From Nitrospirota bacterium (GTDB lineage: Bacteria; Nitrospirota; UBA9217): DNA of 64,000 nt. The DNA lies in NCBI GenBank assembly GCA_963751455.1, contig CAVVUN010000009.1, positions 32,001-96,000 on the forward strand. Direction: 5' to 3'. Made by a program: the position numbers and the translations under genes. The notes below the pieces were generated by a model that worked only from the letters and a program-made list of their open reading frames with translations, ran no database searches and was not told where the DNA came from. Each line of letters begins with the position of its first letter. The stretch's first letter is position 1. Positions 7,577 through 64,000 of this stretch are shown in pieces.

Positions 7577-7726
7577 TTTATCCGCAGATTACGCAGATTC
7601 TATAGATTTCAAAGAACAGCAAATTACAGGAGGGGTAATGCTTTTAAAGCCCTTAAGCTATCAGTCTGCGTCATCTGCTTGTGCCCGGCGTTTTGGCAAC
7701 AGCAGGGTACGAAATCTGCAGATAGA
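7577..7726. repeat. Palindromic element with CGCAGATT arms; a degenerate 43-bp element is nested at ~7677-7709
   Basis: atccgcagattacgcagatt ... tctgcgtcatctgc[ttgtgcccggcg..gcagggtac]gaaatctgcagat. Confidence 0.7.
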
Positions 7727-14983: not shown

Positions 14984-15035
14984 ACGAATCCTGCCTTGAT
15001 TCCCGTCTCTGCGGTCATTGATCCCCGCCGCACGA

Positions 15036-15078
15036 CTTGCACCCAGCGCATACGAGTGCGCAGCGCGAGTGCAGGGCG
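15036..15078 (+). repeat. ~43-bp repeat element, intergenic copy
   Basis: cttgcacccagcgcatacgagtgcgcagcgcgagtgcagggcg matches the consensus of the cob-gene copies. Confidence 0.8.
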
Positions 15079-15339
15079 TTCTCAGTGCGATGGTCCACAA
15101 ACGGTCTAGTCGGTCCTTACTCAGCGAGACGGCACGATAATGAGGCCCTTGATTCCCGTCGACCGTGTCTAAACGCGATGGTACGACAACGGGGCTTGGT
15201 ATTGTGCGAATCGGGAGTGCATGGGTTACACAGAGTCATCGTATCCGAATCACACAGTACGGAAGTGACATGAAGACAATATTTCATGGATGTTCTGAAT
15301 ATAGCGCTGATCAACTCTAACAAGAGCCGTCTTCGGCAG

Positions 15340-16155: not shown

Positions 16156-16380
16156 CGAGTAAAGAAATTTATGAGGATCGCGTTGTATCGTTACTGAGAA
16201 GTCATTTATTTCGGAGGTAGACTTGTGAAGGCTATAGTTGCTCTGTTCAAAGCACTGCTCGGCACTCTTTCAAAGCTTTTCGGTTCGTTCTCCTGGTCTC
16301 CTCCTCCTTGGTTCCAGTTTCCTATGAATCTCTCCTCGTTAAATTTTTCATTTATTGATATATTTTCCGCACCAGGGAGG

Positions 16381-21822: not shown

Positions 21823-21971
21823 GCCGGCTTGTCATGAGGAGCGAATATACCGAATCGCATTCATCACTCAGAATAGATGCGGGAAGTGATACGAGCGTTG
21901 AAAGACGCCGGGAACCGGTATCGAGCACGATTCATAATCTGCGATATACAGCATTACCAAGGAGAGCAAAC

Positions 21972-32510: not shown

Positions 32511-32715
32511 CCTAACCCGGACAAGCCGGAACTAAAACCTTGGAACCGCGAAGGCGCGAAGGTCGCGAAGAAAACCTTGCAAGTCTTGAATTAAAACAAA
32601 ATCTTTGTTTTGATGTCCTTCGCGTTCGCTTGTGCCCAGCGCATGTGAGTGCTTGCCGCGAATGCAGGGCATCGCGCCTTCGCGGTAAATATTCTTCCCA
32701 TTTTGAGAAGGATTT
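32511..32715 (+). repeat. Composite palindromic element with conserved outer ends, CGCGAAGG arms and a nested 43-bp element (32628-32671)
   Basis: cctaacccggacaagccggaactaaaacctt...ttcttcccattttgagaag; both ends are shared with 44091-44256. Confidence 0.8.
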
Positions 32716-38662: not shown

Positions 38663-39150
38663 TAAAGCAGTTTGTAGAGAAGCGATTGCACGATATTGAT
38701 ACGTATCATCCGGAAGTAGAAATTGAGCGGTACAGCATTCAGGAGGATCATGTACATCTGATAATCATCATTCCGCCAAAATATGCAGTGTCGGCGATCG
38801 TCGGAAAGATCAAGGCAAATACGAGTAGGGAAATAAGAAAACATTTCGATTGGATCAAGAGAGTATATTGGAGAAATGAGTTTTGGTCCCCTGGGTTCTT
38901 TTCTTCAACGGTAGGAATAAACGAAGAGGTAATCAAGAGGTACGTGGAGTTTCAAGAAAAGGTTGATAAAGGGCAGTTGAAGTTTGGGTTTTAAAAATAA
39001 GTGCCACGGGCGTAAGCCCGTGGGTATCTACTTGCGTCCAAGCTCTTTTTAAGATGATTAATGGTTTAAACATCTAAGGCGCATCGGCGGTTTTGTTCTT
39101 GAAAACCTCGTCCTTATAAGATATTATCTTACTATAGCTATATCCCTTGA

Positions 39151-40197: not shown

Positions 40198-40620
40198 GCA
40201 GGTAAAGACCTTCAGGCTGCCTGCGTCGCACTTTTCGCGAAATGGATCGAGAAAAATCCGAAGGACGGGGACCAAAAGGCTTTCATGGACATGCCCGTTG
40301 TTCTCAAACGTCCTTCTGACCTGCCGTTCCTGGCTCCGCACTTTGTGAACGAGGTGCGTAAGCTCAATCCCTTTGACCCCGTGCTTCATACCACGCTCGA
40401 TCTTAAACTGCAGAAACTTATTGAGCGGCATGTCCGCAGCTACGTTGATGGGAACAGGCAGAAGGGAATCAATAATGCTGCCGTGCTTCTTGCCGACGCT
40501 CGTACAATGGAAGTTAGGTCCCTGATCGGGTCGGCAAATTTCTTTGATCCCAGGATCGACGGACAGGTGAATGGCGCCTAGGCTAAACGTTCGCCCGGCT
40601 CTGCACTCAAGCCTTTTATC

Positions 40621-40789
40621 CTAAAAACGGCATTTGAACACGGATGAACACGGAAACAGCGGATCAAAACAATGTGATAGAGCAAAAAGCCATCTCGCCT
40701 TTTGGGTGAATCCATTACTGTTCGTAACTTCCTATAAATCCGTGTTGATCAGATTTTATCCGTGTCCAACTGCTTTTTTCAGGTTTATC
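40621..40789 (+). mobile_element. 169-bp palindromic non-autonomous element, copy 2
   Basis: Removing it restores AAG CCT TTT ATC TAC GGT (KPFIYG); TTTATC at both junctions; identical to 11640-11808. Confidence 0.93.
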
Positions 40790-41176
40790 TACGGTTTAGG
40801 CATAGACCAGGGGATTATCCATCCTCTCACCATGCTGAAGGATGCGCCCATGAGCTTCGGTGCCTATAATCCTGAGAACTTTGATAATGATTTTGCCGGA
40901 CCGATCAAGGCATGGGATGCCCTGGTTAAAAGCAGGAATGTTCCGGCCGTTTATATCGTATCGCGTCTTTCTCCGCCTGGATTGCACGGATTTCTGCTCA
41001 AGGCCGGGATTACGCGCATGAAGGACGAATCCTTTTACGGGATGTCTCTGGCTTTAGGAAGTTCGGAAGTGACCATGGAGGAGCTGGTAAAACTCTATGC
41101 CATGCTTGCGAATGGGGGAGTTCTAAAGCCGCTCAAATTTTTCAGTGCATCTTTCTCTATCAGTAAAGTCTCGCAC

Positions 41177-41227: not shown

Positions 41228-43132
41228 ATAGGGGTAGGGACGACGCATTGATTTGCGCCGCCCCTCCCTCCGAACCGGACTGGCGGATTTCCCGCATCCG
41301 GCTCTCCAGTTGGTGGTTTTACCTTACCAAGGACTGACGTAGCTGCGACAAGGGCGTCTTCAAGGCTGAACAGCCCATGTGCATGAAAGAATTTGTTTGG
41401 CCAGCGCATATGATCGTATCCAAGGCTTATTCCCTGCCGCTTGCTGCGTTTGCGCAGTATGCTCCGCAAGCGCCTTCTTACCCAGCCGTCGAGCGGCGGA
41501 AAGGTCCATTTGTCGGCTATGTTTGAAATATTCAAACCAGCCCCGCAGGGTGTGGTTGACCTTCTTCGATGATTTCAGCCAGGCTCTTCCCGTTGCTGCG
41601 TTTCGTCTTCTCTCGTATGGCGTCTTTGAGTTTCTTCAGGCTCTTCTGGCGAGGGCAACCGCATTCCCTGCTCGAAGTGGTAGCCGAGAAAGTCAAATCC
41701 GCCTTCCGGCGTCGTCGTATCCACCAGCCGCGTTTTGTCGGGGTGCAGCGTCAGTCCCCGTTCCGTCAGCATCGTGCGCACTTTCTCCATTGCGGAGCTT
41801 GCTTCCTCCCGGCTGCGGCACAGGATCACGAAGTCGTCCGCGTAGCGGATCATCTGATACCCCGCCTGCGCCATGGCGACATCCACCGGATGGAGATAGA
41901 GGTTTGCAAGCAACGGGCTGATCACTGCTCCCTGCGGCGTCCCGGCTTCGGGCGTCCACAGCTTCAGTTCTTCCAGGATTTCCTGCTTCAGGAATGCCTC
42001 GATCAGCTCCAATACGCGCCCGTCGGCGATATACTTGCGTACCTCGGCCATGAGCGGTTCGTGGGGGATGCTGTCGAAGTATGCCTTGATGTCCGCATCC
42101 ACCACATGCGTATAGCCCGCCTCCAAGAGTTGATCCACTTCCCGCAAGGCGTCTTTGCATCCGCGTTTCGGACGGAATCCATAGCTGTGTTCGACGAACT
42201 CCTTCTCAAGATGGGCTCGATCACCATGCGCACCGCCGTCTGTGTTACGCGGTCCCGGACCGTCGGTATGCCCAACGGTCTCTTTTCCTTGCTGCCCGGC
42301 TTGTCGATATACGTCCGCCGGATGGGGCGGGGACAGTGGCTGTCCGTGCGTATTTCCTCTTCCAAGCGCGCAAGATTCGTCGCGTAGTTGCTCTCAAACG
42401 CCTCGATGCTTTGATGGTCCGAGCCGGCCGCCCCTTTGTTCGCCCTGACTTTAAGCCAGGCCGCTTCCAGGGTGGTCGGTCTGTATACCTTATCGATCAG
42501 GCTGAACCAAACGCCTCCTTTCACCCCTCGTTCGAGGGCCTCCAGCATGCGGTCCGTCCACACCGATCGTTCCACCCAGTCCCATCGTCTGGGGCCGGCT
42601 TCTCCCGTTTGTTTAGTCCCGCCGATGCGGGACACTGCCGCGGGTTGTGCTTCGTTCGGCGCGGCCTTCACGCATCCACCTTCCTGCACCCCTTGGCTCC
42701 ACGGGCATTACCCCGCTTCTTCGCTACTATGGGGCTCTGACTCCTGCCCAACTGACTCTTTCAGGGCAATGAACACTCCTTGCGCCGGGCAGGTCTCCCT
42801 GGTTCACCTCGCGCAACCTTCCATGCATTCCGTCACCAACCACCCGGCGCGCCCTGTCCTCGCTTTCTCCTGTCCGCCCAGCGTGACAGGCTTCCTGGGT
42901 CGTGCCGCCCGCCGGGGCTGCCGCACTTGCCAGGTCTGGACTTCGCCATGAATCGCAGGCTCGTCGCTACGCACGGCCGAATCGTGTTCGTCGTTATCCT
43001 ACGGACTGCATGTTCGCCTCCGGTTGCTCTCCACCCCGCCTCGCGGCGACGCAGTTACCTTCGGCTACCGGGAGTGGGCATCTCCCGGGAGAGGACTTTC
43101 ACCTCTCCGATCGCGCCTGCTCCCAGGCGCAC
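41228..43132 (-). mobile_element. Group II intron (~1905 nt)
   Basis: 5' GTGCGCC at 43132; domain V/VI GAGCCGGATGCGGGAAATCCGCCAGTCCGGTTCGGAGGGAGGGG..CCTACCCCTAT ending at 41228; the flanks rejoin in frame. Confidence 0.93.
41318..42689 (-). pseudogene. ltrA: Intron-encoded reverse transcriptase/maturase with four apparent frameshifts and no En domain
   Basis: RPLGIPTVRDRV, SYGFRP, DADIKAYFD, GTPQGAVISP, RYADDF, FDFLGY, LRGWFEYF; single-base indels near 42207, 41655, 41561 and 41515; ends approximate. Confidence 0.88.
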
Positions 43133-44090
43133 GATTCCCGCTTTCGCGGGAATGACGAACAAGATAATACGCGACTTCTCAGCAAGGAAGCCTCATACCT
43201 CGTGCTGGACATGCTCGCAACGAACCCGCCTCCCTATCAGGGATTCCGCAATGAATGGTTGCGAGATTCGACTAAGGTTCCATGGAAAACAGGCACTTCC
43301 TTCGGTTTCCGTGACGCGTGGTCAATCGGAATCGTCGGTCCTTATGTGCTTGCGGTCTGGATTGGGAACTTCGACGGGGAAGGCAACCCTGCATTCATAG
43401 GACGGGAGGCTGCTGCTCCATTGTTTTTTGAGATCATTGACTCCCTGAAATCACAGGATTCCGAGATAGGTAATTTCTCGGGTCACGGTCTCGCTGACTT
43501 GAACCTGTCCAAAGTGGAGGTCTGTGCTCTATCCGGCGGTCTTCCGGGACCCGACTGCGCTAACCGGGTCTCCACCTGGTTCATTCCAGGCAAGTCGCCC
43601 ATTGTGAAATGTGATGTTCACAGAAGAATATACATTAATACGCGAACTGGCCTGCGAGCCTGCATTGACGGCGCGCCGGGGACCAGGTCCGCGGTATATG
43701 AGTTCTGGTCCTCAGATCTTCTGGCGATCTTCCTTCAGAGCGGCATTACGCGTCGCGTGCCTCCGCCTTATGAACCGGGATGCAGCATGGAGAAAACATC
43801 GACAAAGGGGGCCGGCCCTCAAATCACCTCTCCCCGGGAAGGGGTGGTCTACAGCCTAAGGGCGGCATCGCTGAAGGACGAGCGGGTACCGCTGACCGCA
43901 GTTACTGATGCGGATACGCGTATTGTGCATTGGTTTGCAAATGAAGAGTATCTGGGCTATTCCGAGAGCGGAAAGACGTTCTTCTGGACGCCCAGGTCAG
44001 GGAAGTTCGCGATGCGCGCTGTTGACGACCAGGGCCGATCAGCTGTGAGGGATGTGGTCACAAGGATCGTAGATTAGTTACTAAAAAGTA

Positions 44091-45442: not shown

Positions 45443-45507
45443 ATTGTCTTTTTTCTCTTTGACTTTGATTTGCCTCTATGCTATAAAACGTTACAAATAC
45501 ATCGATC

Positions 45508-45663
45508 ACATCCAGGCGAAGGGAATCCCGTGTAAATCGGGAGCGGACCCGCCGCTGTAATCCCGGCCCGAAAGGGCCTTATATCTCTGCTGAAGCAAGC
45601 CACTGATCAATCTGATTGGGAAGGCAGGCAGGGATGGGAGAGCCAGAAGACCTGCTTGGATGT
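45508..45663 (+). ncRNA. Cobalamin riboswitch 1
   Basis: AGGGAATCCCG-TGTAAAT-CGGG, CCCGCCGCTGTAA, GCCACTG, GGGAAGGC, B12 box AGCCAGAAGACCTGC; P1 acatccaggc/gcttggatgt. Confidence 0.92.
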
Positions 45664-45716
45664 TCTCGCACAGTCTTCGGCGTTAAGATCCTGTGTGGGT
45701 TAATACCACGTTATTA

Positions 45717-45790: not shown

Positions 45791-45899
45791 GAACCACGGG
45801 TTCGCTTCGCGAACACACAGTGAAGCGGGATAAAAAATGGGAAGTACCCAAGTTAATCTGTGTTTATCCGTGTGTCGCGATTCATTGCGACCTGTGGTT
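45791..45899. repeat. Palindromic element between the riboswitches; each arm is interrupted by a mini-hairpin
   Basis: aaccacgg[gttcgcttcgcgaac]acacag...ctgtgtttatccgtgt[gtcgcgattcattgcgac]ctgtggtt. Confidence 0.7.
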
Positions 45900-45917
45900 A
45901 CAAAAGAATACAAACAG

Positions 45918-46102
45918 GAATAAGAAACGGAAAGGGGTGCGATTCCCCTGCTGTCGCGCAACTGTAATGGAAGCGAAAGCCGATCATGCCACTGGAAGCG
46001 CCGTTCAAGCCGATTGAACCGTTTAAGCGGTTTAAACAGTTTGAACCATTGTTCTGGGAAGGCCGGCGAGTAGATTGTCCAGAGCCAGGAGACGTCTTAT
46101 TC
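45918..46102 (+). ncRNA. Cobalamin riboswitch 2
   Basis: CGGAAAGGGG-TGCGATT-CCCCT, CGCGCAACTGTAA, GCCACTGG, CTGGGAAGGC, AGCCAGGAGAC; P1 gaataaga/tcttattc. Confidence 0.9.
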
Positions 46103-46224
46103 AAATTTTCCCGCACAAGGAGATATGCATGATCAGGACAAAACCGCCTCTGTTGGCATAAAGGGACCTATGCTGTTCGGGAAGTTGGTTCGACAATCAA
46201 AATAAAAACAGAGGAGATTACACA

Positions 46225-52480: not shown

Positions 52481-53922
52481 TCATAACAGGCACGCACAGC
52501 GGATGCGGAAAGACCACGGTGACCCTCGGTATTCTTGCCGCCCTTAAAAAGAAGGGTTTTACAGTACAACCCTTTAAGACCGGTCCTGATTTTATCGACG
52601 CGGGTCTCCATCGGCTTGTTGTTGACAGGCCTTCCCGAAACCTGGATCAGTGGATGTGCGGCAGCGACTATGTTATCGATTGCTTCAATAAGCATTCGGC
52701 AAATGCCGACATCGCTGTGATCGAAGGCGTGATGGGAATGTATGACGGAGAATTCAGCACTGCTCATCTCGCGGGCCTGCTCGGCGTTCCCGTAGTTCTT
52801 GTCGTGGATGCGTACGGTATGGCTGAAAGCGCGGGAGCGGTGGTTAAAGGATTTTCCGAGTTTCGAGTTCAGAATTCAAAGTTTGCAGTAAAGCAACCGC
52901 GTTTAGCTGGGATTATATTCAACCGCGTTGCTTCCGAGAACCATTACAAAAGGCTTAAAGACAGTGTGCAGGACATACCTGTTCTCGGCTATGTCCCGAG
53001 AGAACTGAACTTCGAGATTCCTCATCGTCATCTTGGCTTGACCGTGGCGGAGGAGAATCCGCTGAGGCCCGAAAATGTCGAAGGGCTTGCGGATACGGTA
53101 TTAAAACATATTGATATTGATGAGATCGTAAGGAGTGCGGCACTTACAAAAGAGCAAAGCTATCACCGCGAAGGCGCGAAGGTCGCAAAGGAAACCAGAA
53201 CGTTTAAAGTTGCGGTCGCCTATGACAAGGCCTTCTCCTTCTATTATGAAGACAACCTTGACCTGCTTCGGGAAGCTGGCGCTGAAATTATCCGGTTCAG
53301 CCCGATTGAAGACAATGCGGTACCTGATACTGCTGATGCTCTATATATAGGCGGAGGTTATCCTGAATTACATGCGGACGCGCTGTCCCGCAATTCCTCT
53401 ATGCTTGGATCCCTACGGGCATGGAGTGATGCCGGAAAACCGGTCTATGCCGAGTGCGGCGGATTGATGTACCTTTCACAGGGCATCCGTGATTTTGATA
53501 ATGCCTTTTTCGCGATGGCCGGTGTGCTTCCATTCAAAACACGGATGATAAAAAAGCCGATGCTGGCTTACCGGAAAATCGTTCTGAATGAGAACTGCAT
53601 CCTCGGGGTTCAGGGTGACAGGTGCCGGGGGCATGAGTTCCATTATTCGGAGATGATAGAACAAAGTAGTCAGGAGGACTTCGGCGAGACTTCGGCGAGC
53701 TCAGTCGAGTCGTTCAGTCGAGCCGCAGGAGTCAGGAGCAAGGAGCCGGACAACACAGTACAAAGAATATATGCTGTAAAAAATAAAGCAGGAGAACAGT
53801 TCTTGACGGAAGGATTTCGGATCAAAAACACTCTCGCGAGCTACATCCATGTTCACTTCGGCAGCAATCTGCATATCGCGGAACGGTTCGCAGGTTTTGT
53901 AAAAGGAGATCTAAAGGCATGA
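52468..53922 (+). CDS. cbiA: Cobyrinate a,c-diamide synthase
   Basis: GTHSGCGKTT, FKTGPDFID, EGVMG, RHLGL, GGGYPEL, AECGGLMY, GHEFHYS. Confidence 0.96.
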   Translation: MRGIVITGTHSGCGKTTVTLGILAALKKKGFTVQPFKTGPDFIDAGLHRLVVDRPSRNLDQWMCGSDYVIDCFNKHSANADIAVIEGVMGMYDGEFSTAHLAGLLGVPVVLVVDAYGMAESAGAVVKGFSEFRVQNSKFAVKQPRLAGIIFNRVASENHYKRLKDSVQDIPVLGYVPRELNFEIPHRHLGLTVAEENPLRPENVEGLADTVLKHIDIDEIVRSAALTKEQSYHREGAKVAKETRTFKVAVAYDKAFSFYYEDNLDLLREAGAEIIRFSPIEDNAVPDTADALYIGGGYPELHADALSRNSSMLGSLRAWSDAGKPVYAECGGLMYLSQGIRDFDNAFFAMAGVLPFKTRMIKKPMLAYRKIVLNENCILGVQGDRCRGHEFHYSEMIEQSSQEDFGETSASSVESFSRAAGVRSKEPDNTVQRIYAVKNKAGEQFLTEGFRIKNTLASYIHVHFGSNLHIAERFAGFVKGDLKA

Positions 53923-54965
53923 AGGAAAGCATTCTGCTGCTCGGACATGGAAGCCCTAAAAAAGACGCAAACAATCTCGAGCAGCTCGCGAAGATGCTGC
54001 ACGGTATGCTGCATGCCGGATGCGCGGAAGACTGCGTCAAGGTGGCGTACCTGCAGTTTGCGGAGCCCGGTATCCCGGATACGATCAAAGAGTGTGTGCA
54101 GCAGGGCGCGAAGAAGATCATCCTTCACCCGTTCTTTCTCACCGCTGGGATGCACGTGACAAAAGACATCCCGGAGATGATCCGAGATGCGCAGAAGTTG
54201 TATACTGGTGTGGAATTCGTGTATACCGAGCCGCTCGGCATTCACGAAAAGCTGGCTCATATCGTGCTGGAACGCATCAGTGCCGCGGAACAGCTTGCGC
54301 CTGAGGACATCGAAAAGAGGAGTTTCGATATTCTTTCAGCAGAAGCCGGCCTGGGCAGTGTTCCCCCGGATCGTTTGCCGATCGTACAGCGCGTTATTCA
54401 TGCAACCGCTGATTTTGACTTTAAGAACACACTTACGTTCCACCCGGATGCCGTAATAAAGGGGATCGAGGCGATTAGAGCCGGGAAGGATATCCTGACC
54501 GATGTCGAAATGGTGCGGACGGGCATCAATAAAAAGTGGCTTTCAAGGTGGGGCGGAAAAGTTGTCTGCGGGATTCAGGATGCGCGATCCACCCTGCACT
54601 CGCGCGAGCACTCGTCAACGCTGGGCCCAGGCACGATGCAGGATCACGACAAGAGAACGAGATCGGAGATCGGGATCGAGACCGCATTGCGGGAGAACGG
54701 CAACATCGGGATCATAGCCATCGGAAACGCGCCTACAGCGCTTATCAGAACGATTGGCCTTCTCGAAGACTCCGAACTCCCGATTCGGAACTCCGAACTG
54801 CTGATAATCGGTGTTCCCGTGGGCTTTGTTAAAGCTGTTGAATCAAAGGCCCTCCTTGCGGCCCAGCGGTTTCCTTTCATCACGGCTTTGGGCAGAAAAG
54901 GCGGCACGCCGGTAGCAGTAGCAATCGTTAACGCGTTATTGAAAATGGCAGGAGAGGGTAAGTGA
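53919..54965 (+). CDS. cbiX-cbiC: CbiX cobaltochelatase fused to CbiC methylmutase
   Basis: LLGHGS and AGMHV..DIP (CbiX); IEKRSF, RVIHATAD, IGNAPTAL, GVPVGFV, GRKGGT (CbiC). Confidence 0.93.
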   Translation: MKESILLLGHGSPKKDANNLEQLAKMLHGMLHAGCAEDCVKVAYLQFAEPGIPDTIKECVQQGAKKIILHPFFLTAGMHVTKDIPEMIRDAQKLYTGVEFVYTEPLGIHEKLAHIVLERISAAEQLAPEDIEKRSFDILSAEAGLGSVPPDRLPIVQRVIHATADFDFKNTLTFHPDAVIKGIEAIRAGKDILTDVEMVRTGINKKWLSRWGGKVVCGIQDARSTLHSREHSSTLGPGTMQDHDKRTRSEIGIETALRENGNIGIIAIGNAPTALIRTIGLLEDSELPIRNSELLIIGVPVGFVKAVESKALLAAQRFPFITALGRKGGTPVAVAIVNALLKMAGEGK

Positions 54966-55798
54966 GGATTCAAAGTTCAAAGTTCAAGGTTCAAATTAAC
55001 GTAGTGTTTTCTCTCACGCTTACTGCATTCTGCCTGTTGCTTGCATCAACAGATGCGCACGCGATGCACATCTCCGAGGGAATCCTGCCTTTTAACTGGG
55101 CGGTGTTATGGTTTGCCGTGTCAGTGCCGTTTGTAGGATACGGACTATACCGTTTGAGGAAGATGTCGGAAATCGATCTCTCTTTCAAGCCGCTCGTGGG
55201 ACTGATGACAGCGGTGATATTTATCATTTCCTGCATGCCCGTACCGGTACCGACTGCGGGCACCTGCTCTCATCCCTGCGGAACGGGGATATCGGGAATA
55301 TTGCTCGGCCCTGCGATCAGCGTACTGATCACCGCAGCTGCTCTCCTGATACAGGCGCTTTTCCTTGCCCATGGCGGATTAAGCACCTGGGGTGCTGACG
55401 TTGTTTCCATGGGTGTTGTAGGTTCTTTCGCGGGATATGGTACCTTTAAGCTATTACGCTCAATGAAGGTAAAGATAGCGGCTGCAGGCTTCGCAGCTGG
55501 TTTGATAGCTGACTGGGCCACTTACCTTGCCACATCCGTAGAGCTTGCATCAGGCATAAGGGGCGACTCGGCCTTTCTGCCGCTGTTCACGAAAATTGTT
55601 ATTGCCTTCATTCCTACTCAGCTCCCGTTGGGGTTCCTGGAAGGAGCCATGACCGCAGGAATGATATCCCTGCTTTCCAGGAAGAGACCGGATCTTCTGG
55701 TAAAGATGGGAGTGGTGAAAAGTCAGGAGTTAGGAGTCAGGAATCAGGGGGGGTATTGTGAAAAGTCAGGAGTCAGGAGTCAGAAGTCAGGAGTATAG
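54962..55798 (+). CDS. cbiM: Cobalt ECF transporter substrate component
   Basis: Signal peptide ending AHA then MHISEGILP; SHPCG, AHGGLST. Confidence 0.95.
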   Translation: MRIQSSKFKVQINVVFSLTLTAFCLLLASTDAHAMHISEGILPFNWAVLWFAVSVPFVGYGLYRLRKMSEIDLSFKPLVGLMTAVIFIISCMPVPVPTAGTCSHPCGTGISGILLGPAISVLITAAALLIQALFLAHGGLSTWGADVVSMGVVGSFAGYGTFKLLRSMKVKIAAAGFAAGLIADWATYLATSVELASGIRGDSAFLPLFTKIVIAFIPTQLPLGFLEGAMTAGMISLLSRKRPDLLVKMGVVKSQELGVRNQGGYCEKSGVRSQKSGV

Positions 55799-56084
55799 GG
55801 GAATAATTTTAATATTATTATTTCTCCTTTCTTTTCACTTTTCACTCTTCACTGTTGCTTCTGCTGCTGAGAAATGGACTGGCGTGGATGAAACGGTCAT
55901 TGAAAAAATTGCCAAGGAGCATGGCAGGCAGGCGCGGGAGCCGTTTGTCAACACCGACAAGGGGGACCTTCTTCTCTTCGTCTTTCTCCTTGCGGGCGCA
56001 ATCGGCGGTTTTGCAGCAGGGTATTCGTGGCGAAAGCTCATAGAGCCGAAGCAGAAAGATAATAAAAATGGAAATACTGTCTGA
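55758..56084 (+). CDS. CbiN-like cobalt transport subunit
   Basis: W.GVDETVIEK.A..GR..EP..NTD.GDLLLF.FLLAG; lies between cbiM and cbiQ. Confidence 0.78.
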   Translation: MKSQESGVRSQEYRGIILILLFLLSFHFSLFTVASAAEKWTGVDETVIEKIAKEHGRQAREPFVNTDKGDLLLFVFLLAGAIGGFAAGYSWRKLIEPKQKDNKNGNTV

Positions 56085-56820
56085 ATATCATAAAAAAGAT
56101 CATGTGATGACAAGGATCGATGCGCGGGTAAAATTGATCAGTGCCCTGGTCCTTTTGGCAATGGTCCTGAGTTACCGTGGATTCGTATTCCCGCTGGCAA
56201 ACACGGTCCTCTGCCTGTCTTTGTGCATAACGATGCGGGTTCCCTTGCGTGTTTTTATTGTGAGATTTTCAGAACCCCTGTTCCTTGCAGCAGTCATCCT
56301 CCTTCTGAAATTCTTTTTCTCGGGAAGGGATGTCATGTTTTCGATTCATGTTCTCGGCATGGACGTAATTGGACACAGGGATGGGCTACTGGAGGGCCTG
56401 ATGGTAGGAAACAGGATCATAGCCGCTGTCTCTATCGTAGCGCTCATGGGATTTTCCACGCCGTTTACCGAATTCATGGCCGGCCTTTCCTGGCTCAGGG
56501 TCCCCAAGGGCTTTGTCGATATATTGATGTTCGCATACCGGTATATCTTTGTCCTTCTCGATGACGCTGAGGTGATTTACAGCGCTCAGAAGAACAGACT
56601 GGGTTATTCTACGATAAAGAGGGGCTTAAACTCATTCGGCGTTCTTGCCGGTTCGTTGACTCTTAAAGCTTTCGATCACAGCCATAATACGACCGTGGCT
56701 ATGGTCCAGAGAGGGTATGATGGCAATATGCCGTTGTTGAAACATAAAACCTTTAAGTTGTCCGAGGTCGCAGCCTCGGTTGTTTTCATGACCGGAATGG
56801 GATTTTTATGGAAAATGTAA
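56068..56820 (+). CDS. cbiQ: Cobalt ECF transporter T component
   Basis: DARVK, YRYIFVL, AQKNRLG, AMVQRGY. Confidence 0.93.
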   Translation: MEILSEYHKKDHVMTRIDARVKLISALVLLAMVLSYRGFVFPLANTVLCLSLCITMRVPLRVFIVRFSEPLFLAAVILLLKFFFSGRDVMFSIHVLGMDVIGHRDGLLEGLMVGNRIIAAVSIVALMGFSTPFTEFMAGLSWLRVPKGFVDILMFAYRYIFVLLDDAEVIYSAQKNRLGYSTIKRGLNSFGVLAGSLTLKAFDHSHNTTVAMVQRGYDGNMPLLKHKTFKLSEVAASVVFMTGMGFLWKM

Positions 56821-57668
56821 GGAGAACGCAAACGGAGCAGGTCCGCCTTTCTGTTGACATACGATCCTTTATATATCCCGATGGGACGCAGGCGCTGGCC
56901 GACATAACCCTTGAAATCAAAAAGGGCGATTTCGTCGGTCTTCTGGGGTCCAACGGTTCGGGAAAGACAACGCTTCTGAAAGCCATGGACGGGCTGATGA
57001 AGGAGTACCAGGGCAGTGTTCATCTCGATAATGCGGACATCAGGAAACTATCTCCGAAGGAGATTTATAGAAAAGTCGGCCTCGTGTTCCAGAATCCGGA
57101 TGACCAGCTGTTTGCGCCGACCGTGTTTGAGGATGTCGCATTCGGGCCTCTCAATATGGGATTTGCCGGAGAGGAGCTTGCCCGCCGTGTAAACACGGCG
57201 CTCAATGATGTTGAAATGGAAGGGGCTGCGAGGAAGTCTATTCACCATCTGAGTTTCGGTCAGAAGAAAAGAATCTGCATTGCAGGGCTCCTGGCCATGG
57301 GACACGAGATCCTGCTGCTGGATGAGCCGACCGCGGGATTGGACCCGATGGGTGAATATAAAATGATGGGCCTCCTGACGCGGCTTAACAGGGAACGTGG
57401 CGTAACAATCGTCATGGCAACCCACAGCGTTGATCTTGTTCCTCTCTTCCTTGACAGGCTGTATATTCTGAGTAAAGGCCGCATTGCCCGGGGAGGTGCG
57501 CCCGAAGAGGTCTTTACGGCGCCGGAAGAGATGTCCCAGGTAAAGCTTCGTCTTCCCCAGATTGCAGAATTGATTTACCGGCTCAAGCACGATGATGGAA
57601 TGCCGTTCGAGAAAATTCCGCTTACCATCGGAGAGGCGCGGAGAGAGATCCTGAAAATTGCAAAATGA
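56808..57668 (+). CDS. cbiO: Cobalt ECF transporter ATPase
   Basis: GSNGSGKTT, FQNPDDQLF, LSFGQKKR, LDEPTAGLD. Confidence 0.95.
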   Translation: MENVRRTQTEQVRLSVDIRSFIYPDGTQALADITLEIKKGDFVGLLGSNGSGKTTLLKAMDGLMKEYQGSVHLDNADIRKLSPKEIYRKVGLVFQNPDDQLFAPTVFEDVAFGPLNMGFAGEELARRVNTALNDVEMEGAARKSIHHLSFGQKKRICIAGLLAMGHEILLLDEPTAGLDPMGEYKMMGLLTRLNRERGVTIVMATHSVDLVPLFLDRLYILSKGRIARGGAPEEVFTAPEEMSQVKLRLPQIAELIYRLKHDDGMPFEKIPLTIGEARREILKIAK

Positions 57669-57704
57669 TATGCAAGTTTATAATTAACCTTCGAGCGAAA
57701 CGAC

Positions 57705-58223
57705 ATGCGTAAAGGATATGTTCAGGTTTATACGGGCAATGGAAAAGGCAAGACTACGGCTGCACTGGGGTTGGCCCTGCGCGCTGCAGGAGCGGGCCTC
57801 AGAACGTATATCGCCCAATTCATAAAAAAAAGAAAATGCAGCGAACATGTCGTGCTCGAAGAGCTTCAAGACAGGATCGTGATAAAACAATACGGCAACG
57901 GCTTTCTTCTGAAGAAAAAACCGGCTTTGGCAGATATCAAAGCTGCGCAGGCAGGATACGCAGAAGTAAAAGAAATTATTCAGTCCAGGGAATACGATAT
58001 AGTGGTTCTGGATGAAGCGAATGTCGCTGTCCATTACGGGTTGATCCCGGTACAGGACCTGCTCGAGCTTATTCAACAGAAACCGAAAAGCGTCGAGCTC
58101 GTGATAACCGGCAGGTATGCGGATGAGAAAGTGATTCAGGCGGCGGACCTCGTCACCGAGATGCGCGAGATCAAGCATTACCGGGAAAAGGGAGTAGAGG
58201 CGCGGCGTGGCATTGAAAAATAA
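57705..58223 (+). CDS. cobO: Cob(I)yrinic acid a,c-diamide adenosyltransferase (CobO/BtuR)
   Basis: YTGNGKGKTTAA, QFIK, LDE, ITGR, DLVTEM..IKH. Confidence 0.96.
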   Translation: MRKGYVQVYTGNGKGKTTAALGLALRAAGAGLRTYIAQFIKKRKCSEHVVLEELQDRIVIKQYGNGFLLKKKPALADIKAAQAGYAEVKEIIQSREYDIVVLDEANVAVHYGLIPVQDLLELIQQKPKSVELVITGRYADEKVIQAADLVTEMREIKHYREKGVEARRGIEK

Positions 58224-59523
58224 AAAGCTGCGGTCCGGCTATACAACCGGCGCGTGTGCTGCTGCTGCGGCAAAGGCGGCGACAGTACTGCTAATGCGGA
58301 GCGCGGAGTGCGGGGACTTGCACCCAGTGCTAACGAGTGCGAATGCGCGAGTGCAGGGTGTGCGTAGTGAAGAGGAAATCCAGGAGGTATCAATTCCTTT
58401 TCCTGATGGGAGCAGAGTACAATTTGCTGTTCGTAACTCCTCACTCCGAACTCATAACTCCGAACTGATTTCATCGGCCTCAGTGATTAAAGACGCTGGA
58501 GATGATCCGGATGTGACGCATGGTGCGGAGATTATAGCTACAGTCCGGTTTGTGGAGTCGGGACTAAAAAATGAAGAATGTCCGCAAATCGTAATAAAAG
58601 GCGGTAAAGGTGTCGGCAGGGTAACCAAGCCCGGCCTGGCAATCCCAGTTGGCGAACCGGCGATCAATCCCGTGCCGAGGAAGATGATCCGGGAAGCAGT
58701 GATGGAAGCAATAACGGAATCCGTAAATCAACCCATCCCCCTCCCAACCTCCCCCTTGAAAGGGGAGGAACTCAATAAATTCCCTCCCCTTCAAGGGGAG
58801 GGTAAGGGTGGGGATGGGTTGGCTGCCACTCCGCACTTGGAAGTCACCATCTCCGTGCCTGCGGGTGAGGAACTAGCAAAAAAGACACTGAACCATCGCC
58901 TCGGCATTGTCGGGGGAATATCGATCCTCGGCACTACCGGTATCGTCCGTCCCGTATCCAGGGAAGCATATACGGCAACCATTACCGCGGGGATGGATGT
59001 CGCAAAGGCCATGGGTCATAGTGTCGTGGTCCTTTCGTCTGGGAGGACTTCCGAGAAAGCGCACATGAAGAAGTTTGCTTTTCCTGACGAATCCTATGTT
59101 ATGATGGGTGACTATCTCGAATTTTCGCTCATTGACGCGAAGAACCACGGCTTTAGCTCTATCCATCTGTGCGCGCAATGGGCAAAGATGATAAAGACGG
59201 CAATGTCCACACCCCAGACTCATGTCCGGCACGGAGCGATTGAGGCGACGAATGCGGCTGCTTTTCTGAGGTTCCTTGGCGTGGATGTGCCGCCGGCAAA
59301 AGAGTTCAATACGGCCCGGGAAATCTTTGATTACATAAACGCCGCATCATCCAAGCCGCTTGCGCCCAGCGTTGACGAGTGCTTGCGCGAGTGCAGGGTG
59401 CATACCGCGCTTGCCGCGGTTTGCGCAGCGGCAAAACAATACGCTGAGCGGATCACATCAGGCATCCCGGTCATCGTTCATCTCGTGTCTTATGAGGGAA
59501 AAATCATTGCAGCCAGCGAATAA
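58207..59523 (+). CDS. cbiD: Cobalt-precorrin-5B C1-methyltransferase with four in-frame repeat insertions
   Basis: LRSGYTTGACAAAA, KDAGDDPDVTHG, AINPVPR, GGISILGTTGIV. Confidence 0.95.
   Translation: MALKNKKLRSGYTTGACAAAAAKAATVLLMRSAECGDLHPVLTSANARVQGVRSEEEIQEVSIPFPDGSRVQFAVRNSSLRTHNSELISSASVIKDAGDDPDVTHGAEIIATVRFVESGLKNEECPQIVIKGGKGVGRVTKPGLAIPVGEPAINPVPRKMIREAVMEAITESVNQPIPLPTSPLKGEELNKFPPLQGEGKGGDGLAATPHLEVTISVPAGEELAKKTLNHRLGIVGGISILGTTGIVRPVSREAYTATITAGMDVAKAMGHSVVVLSSGRTSEKAHMKKFAFPDESYVMMGDYLEFSLIDAKNHGFSSIHLCAQWAKMIKTAMSTPQTHVRHGAIEATNAAAFLRFLGVDVPPAKEFNTAREIFDYINAASSKPLAPSVDECLRECRVHTALAAVCAAAKQYAERITSGIPVIVHLVSYEGKIIAASE
58730..58820. repeat. In-frame double-hairpin palindrome in cbiD
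   Basis: aacccatcccc..cctccccttgaaaggggagg..ctccccttcaaggggag..ggggatgggtt, encoding PIPLPTSPLKGEE..PPLQGEGKGGDG. Confidence 0.85.
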
Positions 59524-60841
59524 ACTTTCTGTGATAGGCATCGGGTACCGGCCGCTCTGTAAGCGCGCGCAAGAGCTTCTTCTCGGCGCCGAGGTCATTC
59601 TTGCTTCAACACGGCTGCTTGATGTGTTTACCCGTTATGCTGAATATGAAGCCGTTAAACACCGGATCAAGGTCATAAACAAGGTGCCTGATACGATCGA
59701 GTTTATTAAAGAACGCTTTTCTCATTCAGGATCGCAACCCGTAGCTCTCCTCGCGTCCGGAGACCCGCTGTTCTTCGGCATTGGAAGGAAGATACGGGAA
59801 GAGTTCGGGAAGGAAGCGGTTGAGATCCTGCCGGATCTCTCGAGCGTTCAGGAGGCGTTTGCCCGGATTTATGAACCCTGGGATGATGCATTTTTCATAA
59901 GCCTGCACGGCGGCCCGGACATCTCGAAGAGACGCAAGCTGCCCTATGAGGCCGCGGACATCCCCGGGCTGCTCCAGCGATACGGCAAGCTTGGAATACT
60001 TACCGATTCGGAAAACAATCCGGTTCTTATAGCAAAGGTTCTCGAATCTGCAATTCACAGTCCGCAATCCGCAATTGTGATGTCCGTCTGCGAAAGGCTC
60101 GGCTATCCGGATGAAAAGATCACCCAAGGGACTCCTGAAGAGATCGCGGCTAAATCTTTTTCAGACCCAAATGTGGTTATAGCGCAGGAGTCAGGAGTCA
60201 CCCTGCACTCGCGCAAGCACTCGTCAACGCTGGGTGCAGGCAGGAGTTACCCTGCGCTCGCGCAGGAGACAGGAATTATATTCGGATTGCGGGAAGATGA
60301 GATCGATCATGATCGCGGGCTGATCACCAAAGACGAGGTGAGGGCAGTCACGCTTCATAAACTTTACCTTCCGGAACATGGAGTTCTCTGGGACATCGGG
60401 GCGGGATCAGGCTCCGTATCGCTCGAGGCGGCGCGTCTTTGTCCTGGAATGCAGATCTTTGCCATAGAAAAAGAACAGCATCGGATCGATACAATAAATG
60501 CAAATTTGCAGAAGTTCGGCATTCGGAATGTATCAATCATCCAGGGAAGTGCGCCTGATGTTCTTCAGAACATTCCTGCTCCGGATCGCGTTTTCATCGG
60601 CGGGAGCGGCGGAAGTCTCGATTCCATCATAGATCTGGTGAAAGAGAAAATGCATGAAGGTATTGTTGTTATAAACGCAGTAACCCTCGATACACTCAAT
60701 AAGGCGGTCCCGGCCCTGGAAAAGGCCGGGTTCTCAGTGGATGTTACGGAGATATCCGTATCGAGATCAAGGACAGTGGCAGGCAAGCGGCATATGAGCG
60801 CGTTAAACCCTGTGTTTATCGTGAAGGGCAAACGGAGTTAA
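59492..60841 (+). CDS. cbiET: CbiE/CbiT fusion methyltransferase
   Basis: VIGIG, ASGDPLFFGIG, SLHG, CERLG, ITKDEVR, WDIGAGSGS, FIGGSGG; start is 59492 or 59507. Confidence 0.94.
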   Translation: MREKSLQPANKLSVIGIGYRPLCKRAQELLLGAEVILASTRLLDVFTRYAEYEAVKHRIKVINKVPDTIEFIKERFSHSGSQPVALLASGDPLFFGIGRKIREEFGKEAVEILPDLSSVQEAFARIYEPWDDAFFISLHGGPDISKRRKLPYEAADIPGLLQRYGKLGILTDSENNPVLIAKVLESAIHSPQSAIVMSVCERLGYPDEKITQGTPEEIAAKSFSDPNVVIAQESGVTLHSRKHSSTLGAGRSYPALAQETGIIFGLREDEIDHDRGLITKDEVRAVTLHKLYLPEHGVLWDIGAGSGSVSLEAARLCPGMQIFAIEKEQHRIDTINANLQKFGIRNVSIIQGSAPDVLQNIPAPDRVFIGGSGGSLDSIIDLVKEKMHEGIVVINAVTLDTLNKAVPALEKAGFSVDVTEISVSRSRTVAGKRHMSALNPVFIVKGKRS

Positions 60842-60846
60842 AATAT

Positions 60847-61650
60847 ATGGATGGAAAACTCTACGTTATTGGAATAGGGCCCGGCGATCCCGAACTCATG
60901 ACGGTAAAGGCAGTAAGACTGCTGAAGCAAGCGCCGTGCATCTTTGTTCCTAAAGGACGCGAAGAAGGGAGCAGTCTCGCGCTCTCGATCGTCCAGAAAG
61001 CTATTGCACTCGACGGCAAAGAGATTGTCGAGGCGTACTTCCCGATGATGAAAACCGCCCCTCACGCCCCGCACTCGCGCTCCGCACTCGTAACGCCGGG
61101 TGCAAGCCCCGGCCCTCTCCCAGGAGGGAGGGAGATGTCGACGCGAAGTGCGGACGCGAACGAACTCAATGCCAGCTGGAACGAAACGGTCGAGGCTGTT
61201 CTCAACAGGCTGGACAGGGGCATCGATGTCGCGTTCATTACGATCGGAGATCCGGGAATATACAGCACGTTTTTCTATCTCTATGACCGACTGCTCGAGC
61301 AAAAGCCCTCACTTGCAGTTGAGATTATCCCAGGGATATCGTCGATCAATGCTGCAGCTGCACGGGCAGGGTTGTACCTGGGGCTCGGCAACGACCGGAT
61401 TGCCATACTTCCGGCGAATTACCTGGACAGCCTCCAGGAGACCCTGGAGAAGTTCGATACCGTGGTTTTGATGAAGGTGAACAAGGTGTTCGATACGGTT
61501 AAGGACATGCTTGTGAAGATGAACCTGGTGGAGAACGCCGTTTATGTTGCCCGTACCGGGATGGATGACGAGCGGGTGTGTAACGATATCCGGAAGGTGA
61601 CGCAGGAAGAATTGAACTATTTCTCTCTGGTTATAGTGAGGAAGCGATGA
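60847..61650 (+). CDS. cbiL: Cobalt-precorrin-2 C20-methyltransferase
   Basis: GIGPGDPELMTVKA, FPM, IGDPGIYSTF, IPGISS, VLMK, YFSL. Confidence 0.94.
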   Translation: MDGKLYVIGIGPGDPELMTVKAVRLLKQAPCIFVPKGREEGSSLALSIVQKAIALDGKEIVEAYFPMMKTAPHAPHSRSALVTPGASPGPLPGGREMSTRSADANELNASWNETVEAVLNRLDRGIDVAFITIGDPGIYSTFFYLYDRLLEQKPSLAVEIIPGISSINAAAARAGLYLGLGNDRIAILPANYLDSLQETLEKFDTVVLMKVNKVFDTVKDMLVKMNLVENAVYVARTGMDDERVCNDIRKVTQEELNYFSLVIVRKR

Positions 61651-62405
61651 AAGCAAAGGTCATATTCATAGGCGCAGGACCCGGAGACCCGGAATTGATA
61701 ACCGTGAAAGGCAGAAAGCTTCTCGATTCTGCTGACGTTGTGATCTATGCGGGAAGTCTCGTGAATCCCGCGCTGCTGAACGGCATCAAGGCCAGGATCT
61801 TTGATTCAGCTCACATGGACCTGGACGAGATCGTCGCAATAATGAAAAAAACTGCGGAAGACAACAGGATGCTCGTGCGTCTTCACACTGGGGATACCTC
61901 GTTCTACAGTGCAATTTCCGAGCAGATAGAACGGCTCCGCGAACTCGATATTCCGTACGAGGTCGTACCCGGAGTATCATCAGCCATGGCCGGGGCGGCC
62001 ATACTCGGCCAGGAACTGACAATTCCCGAGATCAGCCAGACCGTGATCTTTACCAGGATGGAAGGGCGAACCCCGGTGCCGGCTTCCGAACGACTCGGTT
62101 CACTCGCTTTTCATCGTGCTACCATGGCGATCTTCCTGAGCGTCGGCATGATTGAAAAGGTCCGTGATGAACTGCTCCAGGGCTATCCAGAAAATACGCC
62201 CGTTGTGATCATCGAGAAGGCAACATGGCCCGATCAGAAGGTCATACGGGGAACATTAAAGGAAATTGTGTCCCTGGTTACGAACGCAGGCATCATGAAG
62301 ACGGCGCTTATCTACGTGGGTGAATCCCTTCGAGCATCGGAAAAATCCATGGGAAAAGAATCGAAGCTTTATCATAAGGATTTTAAACATGGATATCGGG
62401 AATGA
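61647..62405 (+). CDS. cbiF: Cobalt-precorrin-4 C11-methyltransferase
   Basis: GAGPGDPELITVKG, YAGSLV, RLHTGD, ELTIPEISQT, SKLY..F.H.YR. Confidence 0.96.
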   Translation: MKAKVIFIGAGPGDPELITVKGRKLLDSADVVIYAGSLVNPALLNGIKARIFDSAHMDLDEIVAIMKKTAEDNRMLVRLHTGDTSFYSAISEQIERLRELDIPYEVVPGVSSAMAGAAILGQELTIPEISQTVIFTRMEGRTPVPASERLGSLAFHRATMAIFLSVGMIEKVRDELLQGYPENTPVVIIEKATWPDQKVIRGTLKEIVSLVTNAGIMKTALIYVGESLRASEKSMGKESKLYHKDFKHGYRE

Positions 62406-62453
62406 CGTGGTATGGAGCGAGCCAAACGCGTTGGCGTGTAAAATCACGGCGAC

Positions 62454-63515
62454 ATGGTCGTCTTGATCCAAAAAAGAATGAAAAAATCTGCGATCCTGTA
62501 TATAACTGAGAACGGCCGGACGTTGGCAGAGCGCCTGAAGGATCTGTACTCTGATGCCGACATTATAAAGTTTGTCCCCGGTGTTGTCATGGATTTGTGG
62601 GGCAAGTATGAACGCTTTGTGTTCATTATGGCGGCGGGCATTGTTGTCCGGACCATAGCTCCGCTGCTTAAGGATAAGAGGTCGGATCCCTCGGTAGTAG
62701 TGCTGGACGAACAGGGAAAATTCGCGATTAGCCTCGTGAGCGGGCACCTGGGCGGAGCGAACGAGCTGGCAAAGGAGATTGCCGGTTTCCTTGGAGGTGA
62801 AGCAGTCATTACGACGGCGTCAGATGTAAACGAGTTGCCGCCGGTAGACCTCTGGGCCAGGGACAACAACCTTATCATTGAGAACTGGGAGGCGCTTCCG
62901 CAGGTCGGTACGCGTTATGTGAATAACGGAGGTTTAAGGGTCTATAGCGATGTCCCTCTGAAATTTCCCGACCAATTTCTCAGAGTTGCGGATCCCCGGT
63001 TCGCTGATGTTATCATTACAGCGCGGCTCGACGTATACGCCGGCGCCCCGAGATGCACGATAACAGGAGAAGGATGCTCCACCGGTTCATGCCGGGTGAA
63101 GGGACAAATCTATCTGCGGCCTGTTAATCTTGTCCTCGGAATCGGCTGCAACAGCGGCACGTCCGGGGATGAGATTCGGAATGCCGTGCACCGCGTGCTT
63201 GCAGAACATAATCTCGCCTTTGCCTCCGTTCACTCCGTTTCGACCATTGAGATCAAAGGCAGTGAGCCGGGACTCAAAATGTTTATTCAGGAAAATGACT
63301 TTTCTCTGCGTACTTTCAGCATCCACGAGCTGAACAGTGTGGAAGGGATAGAAAAATCGGAAGCAGTGTTCAAGGCCACCGGAGCCTACGCTGTTGCAGA
63401 ACCGGCGGCAATGCTTGCCGCAGGAACGGACAGTGTGCTCGTGCCGAAACAAAAAAAGGGAAACGTGACAGTGGCAGTTGCGGAAATACATAATGTGGAA
63501 GCGAGTGAAGAATGA
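62454..63515 (+). CDS. cbiG: Cobalt-precorrin-5A hydrolase
   Basis: MAAGIVVRTIAP..DK.SDP, SGHLGGAN, ITTASD, LGIGC, VAEPAA; start may be 62478. Confidence 0.94.
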   Translation: MVVLIQKRMKKSAILYITENGRTLAERLKDLYSDADIIKFVPGVVMDLWGKYERFVFIMAAGIVVRTIAPLLKDKRSDPSVVVLDEQGKFAISLVSGHLGGANELAKEIAGFLGGEAVITTASDVNELPPVDLWARDNNLIIENWEALPQVGTRYVNNGGLRVYSDVPLKFPDQFLRVADPRFADVIITARLDVYAGAPRCTITGEGCSTGSCRVKGQIYLRPVNLVLGIGCNSGTSGDEIRNAVHRVLAEHNLAFASVHSVSTIEIKGSEPGLKMFIQENDFSLRTFSIHELNSVEGIEKSEAVFKATGAYAVAEPAAMLAAGTDSVLVPKQKKGNVTVAVAEIHNVEASEE

Positions 63516-64000
63516 AAATACAAAATTCATCGGCCAAAGGTACTGTATACATCGTCGGCACCGGGCCGGGAAGTCTTGACCATATTACGCCCGCAGCCCG
63601 AAAGGCGATCAGCAAATCGGATGTTATTGTCGGGTACGGGACCTATCTCGACCTGATTCGTGAGCTTCTGCAGGACAAGGAGGTCCTCTCCACGGGAATG
63701 ACCCAGGAGGTAGACCGGTGTCGCAAAGCAGTCGAGCTTGCACAAGGGGGCAAGACAGTTGCAGTCATCAGCGGCGGTGACCCGGGAGTCTACGCCATGG
63801 CGGGGCTCGTATTTGAGATTCTCAGGAGTCAGGAGTCAGGAGACACCCATCACTCGCGCGAGCACTCGTCAACGCTGGGCGCAGACAGGAGTCAGGAGTC
63901 AGTAGGGAAAAACTTCACACTCCGCCCGCGCCCAGCGACTGCGAGTTCTTGCGCGAGCGCAGGGTGCAATCGGCAATTGCCTCTCGTCGAAGTTATTCCC
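63512..64000 (+). CDS. cbiH: Cobalt-precorrin-3 C17-methyltransferase, 3'-partial
   Basis: VGTGPG, VGYGTY, GMTQEVDR, SGGDPGVYAMAG, then a ~50-aa repeat-derived insert before VEVIP; not in the ORF track because it runs off the window end. Confidence 0.93.
   Translation, partial: MKIQNSSAKGTVYIVGTGPGSLDHITPAARKAISKSDVIVGYGTYLDLIRELLQDKEVLSTGMTQEVDRCRKAVELAQGGKTVAVISGGDPGVYAMAGLVFEILRSQESGDTHHSREHSSTLGADRSQESVGKNFTLRPRPATASSCASAGCNRQLPLVEVIP

Follow-up and report, generated by a model that had tools for sequence, protein, structure and literature searches.

The small dispersed repeats (SDRs) SDR1-8 of the Nostocaceae, which go back to Elhai in 2008, are said to be 21-27 nt long, to use heptamer arrays and mini-transposons as hosts and to nest in themselves. 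Their structure is reportedly backed by compensatory changes. Rickettsia palindromic elements (RPEs), reportedly introduced by Ogata in 2000, are the other small elements of concern here. We know of no mobiliser of the SDRs, and since their description it has been an open question by what means elements only a few dozen bases long are moved. According to the relevant passages of papers citing that work, SDR5 inserts precisely into HIP1 (PMC5861425, PMC4390886, PMC3116915, PMC2884548) and SDRs are confined to Nostocaceae (PMC5861425). A table in PMC3184786 gives RPE lengths of about 105-146 bp, and passages of the same paper describe the insertion sequences (IS) IS621, IS1594 and IS1397 as targeting repetitive extragenic palindromes (REPs). 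In this study, we analysed a family of small inserts, element A, in a 64-kb window (the whole stretch of DNA studied, bases 32001-96000 of contig C9) and in the rest of a Nitrospirota genome (G000; 5.72 Mb in 15 contigs).

Element A has exact ends, lies 3' of a G, makes no target duplication and is missing from the corresponding sites of relatives. Its stems covary, it nests in itself and in other repeats, accepts cargo in its centre, forms dimers and, within genes, is biased towards lengths which keep the frame. Element A is almost certainly a mobile element and very probably moves as a folded single strand.

Copies, ends and fold of element A

The original prediction described about ten copies, in both orientations, of a unit of approximately 43 bp inserted in frame into cobalamin enzymes, and the element was found at all ten sites. 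The 43-mer matched the window three times with up to three mismatches, whereas 100 shuffles gave no match, and a profile built from seven window copies recovered nine of the ten sites. The tenth (7678-7709), which had been taken for a degenerate copy, is a member of a separate short subfamily of 31-32 nt. The repeated unit is thus real, but the first G of the 43-mer is the target, so that the copies concerned measure 42 nt. The copies and related elements of the window are listed below; the cbi gene names come from NCBIfam, except that cbiH was named by alignment with the genes of neighbours.

54590..54631, minus strand: element A, 42 nt, antisense in cbiX-cbiC, in frame; TTGA-bulge variant; host, a decayed CAGGATG-type heptamer loop
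58316..58360, plus strand: element A, 45 nt with one extra 5' base, in cbiD, in frame (residues 37-51); host, a GCGGAGT heptamer array
59359..59400, plus strand: element A, 42 nt, in cbiD, in frame (residues 385-398); TTGA-bulge variant
60199..60240, minus strand: element A, 42 nt, in the linker between cbiE and cbiT, in frame; TTGA-bulge variant; host, a CAGGAGT array
60248..60262, minus strand: right-end remnant of element A, 15 nt, in frame, in the CAGGAGT array shared with the 60199 copy (cbiET)
61065..61106, minus strand: element A, 42 nt, in cbiL, in frame; host, an arm of a CCCTCAC..CCCGGCCCTCTCCC hairpin
63844..63885, minus strand: element A, 42 nt, in cbiH, in frame; TTGA-bulge variant; host, a CAGGAGT array
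63925..63966, plus strand: element A, 42 nt, in cbiH, in frame; host, an ACTCCGC/AATCGGC heptamer remnant
15036..15078, plus strand: element A, 43 nt, within a loop formed by partner hairpin B; placed between genes by our own gene caller (subtilase start at 14983)
32629..32671, plus strand: element A, 43 nt, intergenic; host, a 9-mer TTCGCGCC-type repeat
7678..7709, plus strand: short subfamily of element A, 32 nt, intergenic; host, an ATCTGCG-type repeat
14994..15200, plus strand (limits approximate): nested units of partner hairpin B (58-nt family), host of the 15036 copy
53678..53725, minus strand: sister micro-element C, a nested pair of 24-nt units in cobB, in frame, in a CAGGAGT array; tandem G.A hairpin motif as in A

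An iterated profile run over the whole genome gave 164 matches at E ≤ 1e-3, 177 at 0.01 and 237 at 1, and none at any of these thresholds in the reversed genome. The full-length matches numbered 166, and 136 of them had clean ends. A G stands at position -1 in 129 of the 166; the other flanking positions are weak, including C/T at -4 and C at -3, which may reflect the make-up of the hosts. When the element was cut out from its foot to its last base, most of 125 copies, as read by eye, left behind words that the genome also contains at other places. The last base of element A pairs and covaries with base 5, and a G still precedes 19 of the 30 copies whose last base is A. The preceding G is therefore the target, and a one-base target duplication was ruled out.

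Of the 284 full-length copies from this genome and its relatives, 241 (224 of them unique) parse into a fixed anatomy. A foot C(C/T)TG is followed by a 5-bp end stem, an A.A mismatch, a 3-bp stem, a bulge of mostly 4 bases and one pair; further in lie tandem G.A pairs, a 4-bp stem and a loop of 0-5 nt occurring in 94 different sequences. Among the unique copies the foot is CCTG in 171, CTTG in 36, CTCG in 8, CCCG in 6 and TCTG in 3. Double changes were found at 12 of the 13 predicted pairs (146 cells, 94% paired), whereas sliding the pairing by one or two columns left 8 and 12 cells; the structure was derived from the same, related sequences, which overstates its certainty, though the changes fall at many separate positions. 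The pairs with the highest corrected mutual information are stem pairs, and the wobble pairs of variable columns are biased towards the written strand (47 G.T against 21 A.C). The short subfamily has the foot and the outer stems of element A and a different inside, so it seems to be the ends that count. When further inserts made of a foot plus a hairpin were sought by a strict generic scan, this subfamily alone came up; the generic end pattern gave 60 matches in viral contigs, by eye mostly due to chance. Rfam reached its gathering score over none of the copies, the best hit, to twister-sister, scoring 23.6 bits where the cut-off is 34.

Insertion sites, host repeats and spread

The suggested tie to cobalamin enzymes was not borne out. 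By our own gene caller (79% coding), 124 of the 136 clean-ended copies lie outside called genes and 12 inside; the clean-end filter dropped the cbiC copy, and a late start placed the cbiD 58316 copy outside genes. The cobalamin genes are a local cluster, the cbi operon being the densest 10-kb bin of the genome for element A with six copies. Other host genes are of nitrogenase-scaffold-like, thiamine-pyrophosphate (TPP)-enzyme, radical-SAM and deacetylase types. The claim that coding copies keep the frame held: all seven copies in cbiC, cbiD, cbiET, cbiL and cbiH are 42 or 45 nt long and in frame, and genome-wide 10 of the 12 copies inside genes, but 52 of the 124 outside, have a length divisible by three (p=0.012). 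One of the two exceptions lies in a weak open reading frame (ORF) of 54 codons and the other is part of an in-frame nest of 87 nt.

The cbi genes of relatives show the alleles without the insert that a tiny mobile unit, as proposed, would leave. In the alignments as far as listed, the orthologous genes of genomes G005, G006, G016, G018, G023 and G036 carry no copy of element A. At cbiD 58316, G018 is shorter by exactly 45 nt, and at 59359 G005 is shorter by 42 nt. G006 and G023 are each 42 nt shorter at the cbiC site, and the CAGGAGT array of cbiET is present in G036 without element A. The same comparison assigned the extra 5' base at cbiD 58316 to the insert. The alignment columns of both CbiD inserts are unoccupied or almost unoccupied in 109 of 109 homologues, and no homologue has a similar peptide there. 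The expectation that the inserts would lie in loops agrees with the AlphaFold model of CbiD made with an alignment, whose predicted core is intact at a mean confidence (pLDDT) of 88; the single-sequence fold (pLDDT 37) was uninformative. In this model, insert 37-51 is a predicted low-confidence loop, and insert 385-398 a predicted loop running into a helix at about 70. In CbiL, the loop which holds the insert has 34 residues here compared with a two-residue link in the solved CbiL 2qbu. Element A thus illustrates a route by which loops of 14-15 residues enter core enzymes, seven times in one operon.

Two further inserts were noticed in cbi genes. A long perfect hairpin of the CCCTCCC..GGGAGGG type lies in frame at cbiD 58727-58823 and encodes about 30 residues of low fold confidence. 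In the cbi operon of G006 (L035), the same loops of cbiC, cbiD and cbiL have a different small hairpin insert, with peptides such as PPIKTFEGRL and SPDRVIRGQA, instead of element A.

Other repeats had been proposed as landing sites, and this stood for the intergenic copies as a set: 67 of the 124 lie in another repeat, compared with 456 of 3000 random intergenic G sites. It did not stand for the copy at 59359, which has no intact host repeat and at best a decayed heptamer array. A tandem-repeat context was found for 24 of the 124 intergenic copies and 62 of the 3000 control sites, and for copies in genes the host-repeat counts were 6 of 12 against 232 of 3000. Given host repeats have fixed junctions, which are used by different variants of element A.

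Element A also inserts into element A, at three positions, and into the 58-nt hairpin B. Conversely, 25 of 48 matches of partner B lie at one site inside element A, and 18 elements of 100-109 nt keep both ends of A. Head-to-tail copies of A occurred in all four metagenome loci. A nest of two A copies, 43 and 44 nt, lies in frame in a nitrogenase component-1-type gene of 988 codons (G000 C15:1053757-1053843); neither part is a multiple of three, and the whole of 87 nt keeps the frame. The tandem G.A motif (pyrimidine-GA-purine facing pyrimidine-GA-purine) is common to element A, element C and several REP-like arms, of which there are four families with 24, 17, 10 and 6 copies; the motif gave 109 matches, against 26 in the reversed control. 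Element C has 24 motif copies in the genome. Of 150 other genomes in the phylum, 9 contain it letter for letter, and two of these lie outside the family.

Hairpin B is found nested within B and within A; between genes it also builds head-to-tail arrays, each made up of 2-6 units, which have no enzyme gene in their vicinity (C15:1572030-1572330, C15:1354200-1354540 and, on the same contig, between rplN and rplX). The loci L043, L160 and L162 show CGTC-type REPs that enclose a 27-nt element whose foot is CCTG and whose right end resembles that of A, in two cases beside GIY-YIG genes. The genome further contains two CRISPR-like repeat families (167 and 87 seed-word copies) and many mini-transposon families built of repeats.

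The hosts are known from assembled genomes. A degenerate pattern of element A matched 17 of 36 genomes of the same family and none of 24 from other families of the phylum. At least 102 loci were found in the species collection; 78 of the 80 listed are labelled Nitrospirota, Nitrospirae or Nitrospiria, the remaining two come from one bin labelled Betaproteobacteria, and none is cyanobacterial. Two viral contigs carry element A, and in the plasmid and phage collections no record covers 80% of it. Near-identical copies cluster, with 10 pairs within 20 kb against 0.95 expected, and all four copies of the TTGA-bulge variant belong to the cbi operon, where they occupy different hosts in either orientation; none of 113 in other genomes is of this kind. 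To judge from these sequences, element A appears to hop to nearby sites.

Possible routes of movement

The best explanation as a whole, which we advance tentatively, is that element A, itself non-coding, moves as a folded single strand cut and pasted by a HUH-type (REP/IS200-transposase-like) enzyme encoded elsewhere. DNA strand transfer by an enzyme of this type is in itself no better than possible, and the class is a guess, chosen because that family is built on a foot plus a bulged hairpin, inserts 3' of a short motif and makes no duplication. A tetranucleotide 5' of a bulged hairpin is described, in the relevant part of PMC6006769, as the design read by HUH TnpA enzymes. The enzyme would read the fold, i.e. 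the 4-base foot, the 5-bp end stem, the purine mismatch, the 3-bp stem, the 4-base bulge, the tandem G.A pairs and the variable loop. Other repeats may be chosen for exposing single-stranded or hairpin DNA, and new copies would land at nearby sites; within genes, presumably only insertions of multiples of three in tolerant loops would survive.

The mobiliser was originally placed outside the window. No such gene lies beside the copies in the window, and none was found beside copies elsewhere in the genome or at 115 loci. Among the gene families within 250 bp of 237 copies, no mobile-enzyme family recurs, although our own gene caller may miss small genes; ORF clusters at the 115 loci of relatives and phages revealed no mobiliser beside element A either. 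No transposase, reverse transcriptase (RT) or nuclease adjoins element A or tracks its presence across genomes. Matches to DUF559, GxxExxY, four-helix-bundle, RT, IS110, GIY-YIG and Y1 proteins come no nearer than 350 bp, the nearest being a group II RT gene. The genes beside tandem B arrays and beside A dimers included no mobiliser. Y2 is present in 2 of 17 carriers and 3 of 19 non-carriers and is absent from this genome. A longer parent split around a gene was rejected, the split forms containing B or A and no ORF.

Several results weigh against HUH-mediated transfer of a folded strand. The genomic tests lent this route no support: the nearest Y1 gene is 503 bp from a copy of element A, no A-like ends were seen by eye at Y1 genes among the 23 distinct loci listed of 31, and the presence of Y1 does not follow that of element A (13 of 17 carriers and 18 of 19 non-carriers). 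The foot is not GTAG, GTGG or CGTC, and beyond the G the target shows only weak preferences. No G at -1 was found in 38 of the 241 parsed copies, many of which have one extra base after a G at -2, which is unexpected for clean strand transfer. Single copies fold no better than shuffles (z -0.13) and the mean folding energy is equal for both strands; as the energies give no signal, the fold was argued from covariation. The folded strand is the C-rich strand in 68 of 115 cases (p=0.06), which does not support a lagging-template rule. Predicted folds of the empty sites gave no signal of targets being G.T mismatches in host hairpins, an idea thus not supported, and only a small shift toward a stem starting at the site. 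Finally, of the seven close pairs that lie outside the cbi operon, most have a common host and possibly moved as composites.

Elhai et al. reportedly proposed RNA intermediates for the SDRs. Applied to element A, a small structured RNA would be cut from a transcript and copied by an RT into a nicked target, the target's 3' G pairing with the end of the template and the extra base at the left junction being an untemplated addition. This route is unlikely, though it would account for the G.T bias on one strand, for the additional base which a minority of copies have at the left junction (at cbiD 58316 it belongs to the insert) and for the head-to-tail units of A and B, and the genome has six RT matches. 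The right-end-only remnant at 60248 also suits it but is explicable by microhomology deletion, and most copies are precise at both ends. Moreover, group II maturases are rarer in carriers than in non-carriers (5 of 17 vs 15 of 19), a difference which may stem from kinship or assembly; the kin are not independent. The folded strand is opposite to the flanking genes in 61 of 97 cases, and at one position of the end stem 55 of 224 copies have A.C.

Element A could alternatively be the gene-less derived end of a GIY-YIG (or GxxExxY, DUF559) cassette, whose nuclease nicks repeat hairpins while host repair pastes in the folded piece. The inner tandem-G.A motif of A does recur in REP-like arms of the genome, a GIY-YIG gene of another genome (G049, locus L159) has one of these arms just downstream, and many host repeats of element A are presumably those which accompany small nuclease genes. 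We regard such an origin as rather improbable. No A-bounded cassette was found in the genome, by an end-pair search up to 150 nt and by flanking genes, or at the 115 loci, and among 20 GIY-YIG regions of carriers one had an arm and none had A ends by eye. GIY-YIG occurs in 35 of 36 genomes (17 of 17 carriers and 18 of 19 non-carriers) and is uninformative, and a nuclease alone would leave the precise ends unexplained.

Spread with neither targeting nor a dedicated enzyme, by recombination between host repeats or by survival where repeats mark neutral DNA, is very improbable: 57 of the 124 intergenic copies do fail the host-repeat test, some host-plus-A composites recur as units and orthologous loops hold other inserts at the same places, which makes these sites permissive, but dozens of unrelated hosts obey one junction rule, different variants occur at the same host position, an identical variant occupies different hosts and orientations in the cbi operon, the end stem covaries and the control sites were likewise intergenic.

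A broader reading, which we consider speculative and doubtful, makes A, its short form, B and C the cargo of one undescribed strand-transfer system, with an enzyme class so far not known for mobilising DNA. Such a system would read only the foot and the tandem-G.A hairpin and would insert pieces of up to at least 100 bases without a scar, behind a G where DNA is exposed. The boundary G of element C lies on the other strand than that of A, which leaves a shared enzyme no more than a candidate. If true, this reading would supply the long-missing mechanism of SDR-type elements.

Other features of the window stand apart from element A. A group II intron with a frameshifted RT gene lies at a CGTC-type REP hairpin at about 41228-43135 (minus strand), inside a broken second pbp1C gene which is also interrupted by a 170-nt repeat-bounded element (about 40620-40790; a family of about 60 genome copies). 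An IS630 transposase gene (37581-38618) adjoins a broken IS200-type fragment at about 38617-38955. Two tandem cobalamin riboswitches (45497-45673 and 45899-46114) lie upstream of cobT and a bzaB/thiC-like gene. Upstream of the intact pbp1C, two giant ORFs (16225-27794; about 1865 and 1991 aa) have no NCBIfam match, and from their context we guess them to be alpha-2-macroglobulin-like.

Element A among small repeated elements

A literature search, whose coverage left subscription journals largely aside, gave no description of element A, and the accessible part of PMC12306157 contains none. Checked against catalogued elements, A is neither a GTAG/CGTC REP nor a MITE (miniature inverted-repeat transposable element), nor does it match an Rfam family. 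It shares with the GTAG/CGTC REPs and REPINs, as they appear in the relevant parts of PMC3733652 and PMC6006769, a tetranucleotide directly 5' of a bulged hairpin and the occurrence of some copies inside genes or other palindromes. In contrast to those repeats, which are tied to TnpA(REP)/RAYT (REP-associated tyrosine transposase), its foot is C(C/T)TG, its copies are single or nested rather than inverted dimers, and no A-flanked TnpA gene was found. A MITE would have terminal inverted repeats of 15-30 bp and a target duplication, whereas A has a 5-bp end stem offset by the 4-base foot and no duplication. A non-autonomous IS200/IS605 derivative would insert 3' of a fixed tetranucleotide without duplication; A makes no duplication, but at its target only the G at -1 is strong, and no TnpA-encoding element with the ends of A was seen by eye at the Y1 flanks (23 of 31 loci). 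The insertion sequences which target REPs resemble A in using other repeats as landing sites; according to the passages on them (PMC3184786), they carry their own transposase and use one host family, while A is gene-less and has many hosts.

The original prediction saw the nearest analogy in RPEs. They too insert in frame into enzyme genes, in either orientation and in loops which leave the fold intact. Element A is a third of their size, is mostly intergenic and lands in other repeats. The SDRs of cyanobacteria are closer. For studying how such elements move, element A supplies exact ends, a target rule, a fold drawn from more than 200 natural variants, positions which tolerate cargo, and matched carrier and non-carrier genomes.

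Precise insertion, tiny size, a covarying fold, heptamer arrays as hosts and nesting in itself, all reportedly features of the SDRs, were found in element A as well. The differences are its length of 42-45 nt (31-32 nt in the short form) compared with the 21-27 nt which SDRs are said to have, its occurrence in Nitrospirota, the cargo held between two intact ends, and the defined foot and G rule; element C, with 24 nt, fits the SDR length. Judged by these features, element A is a larger element of the SDR kind in another phylum.

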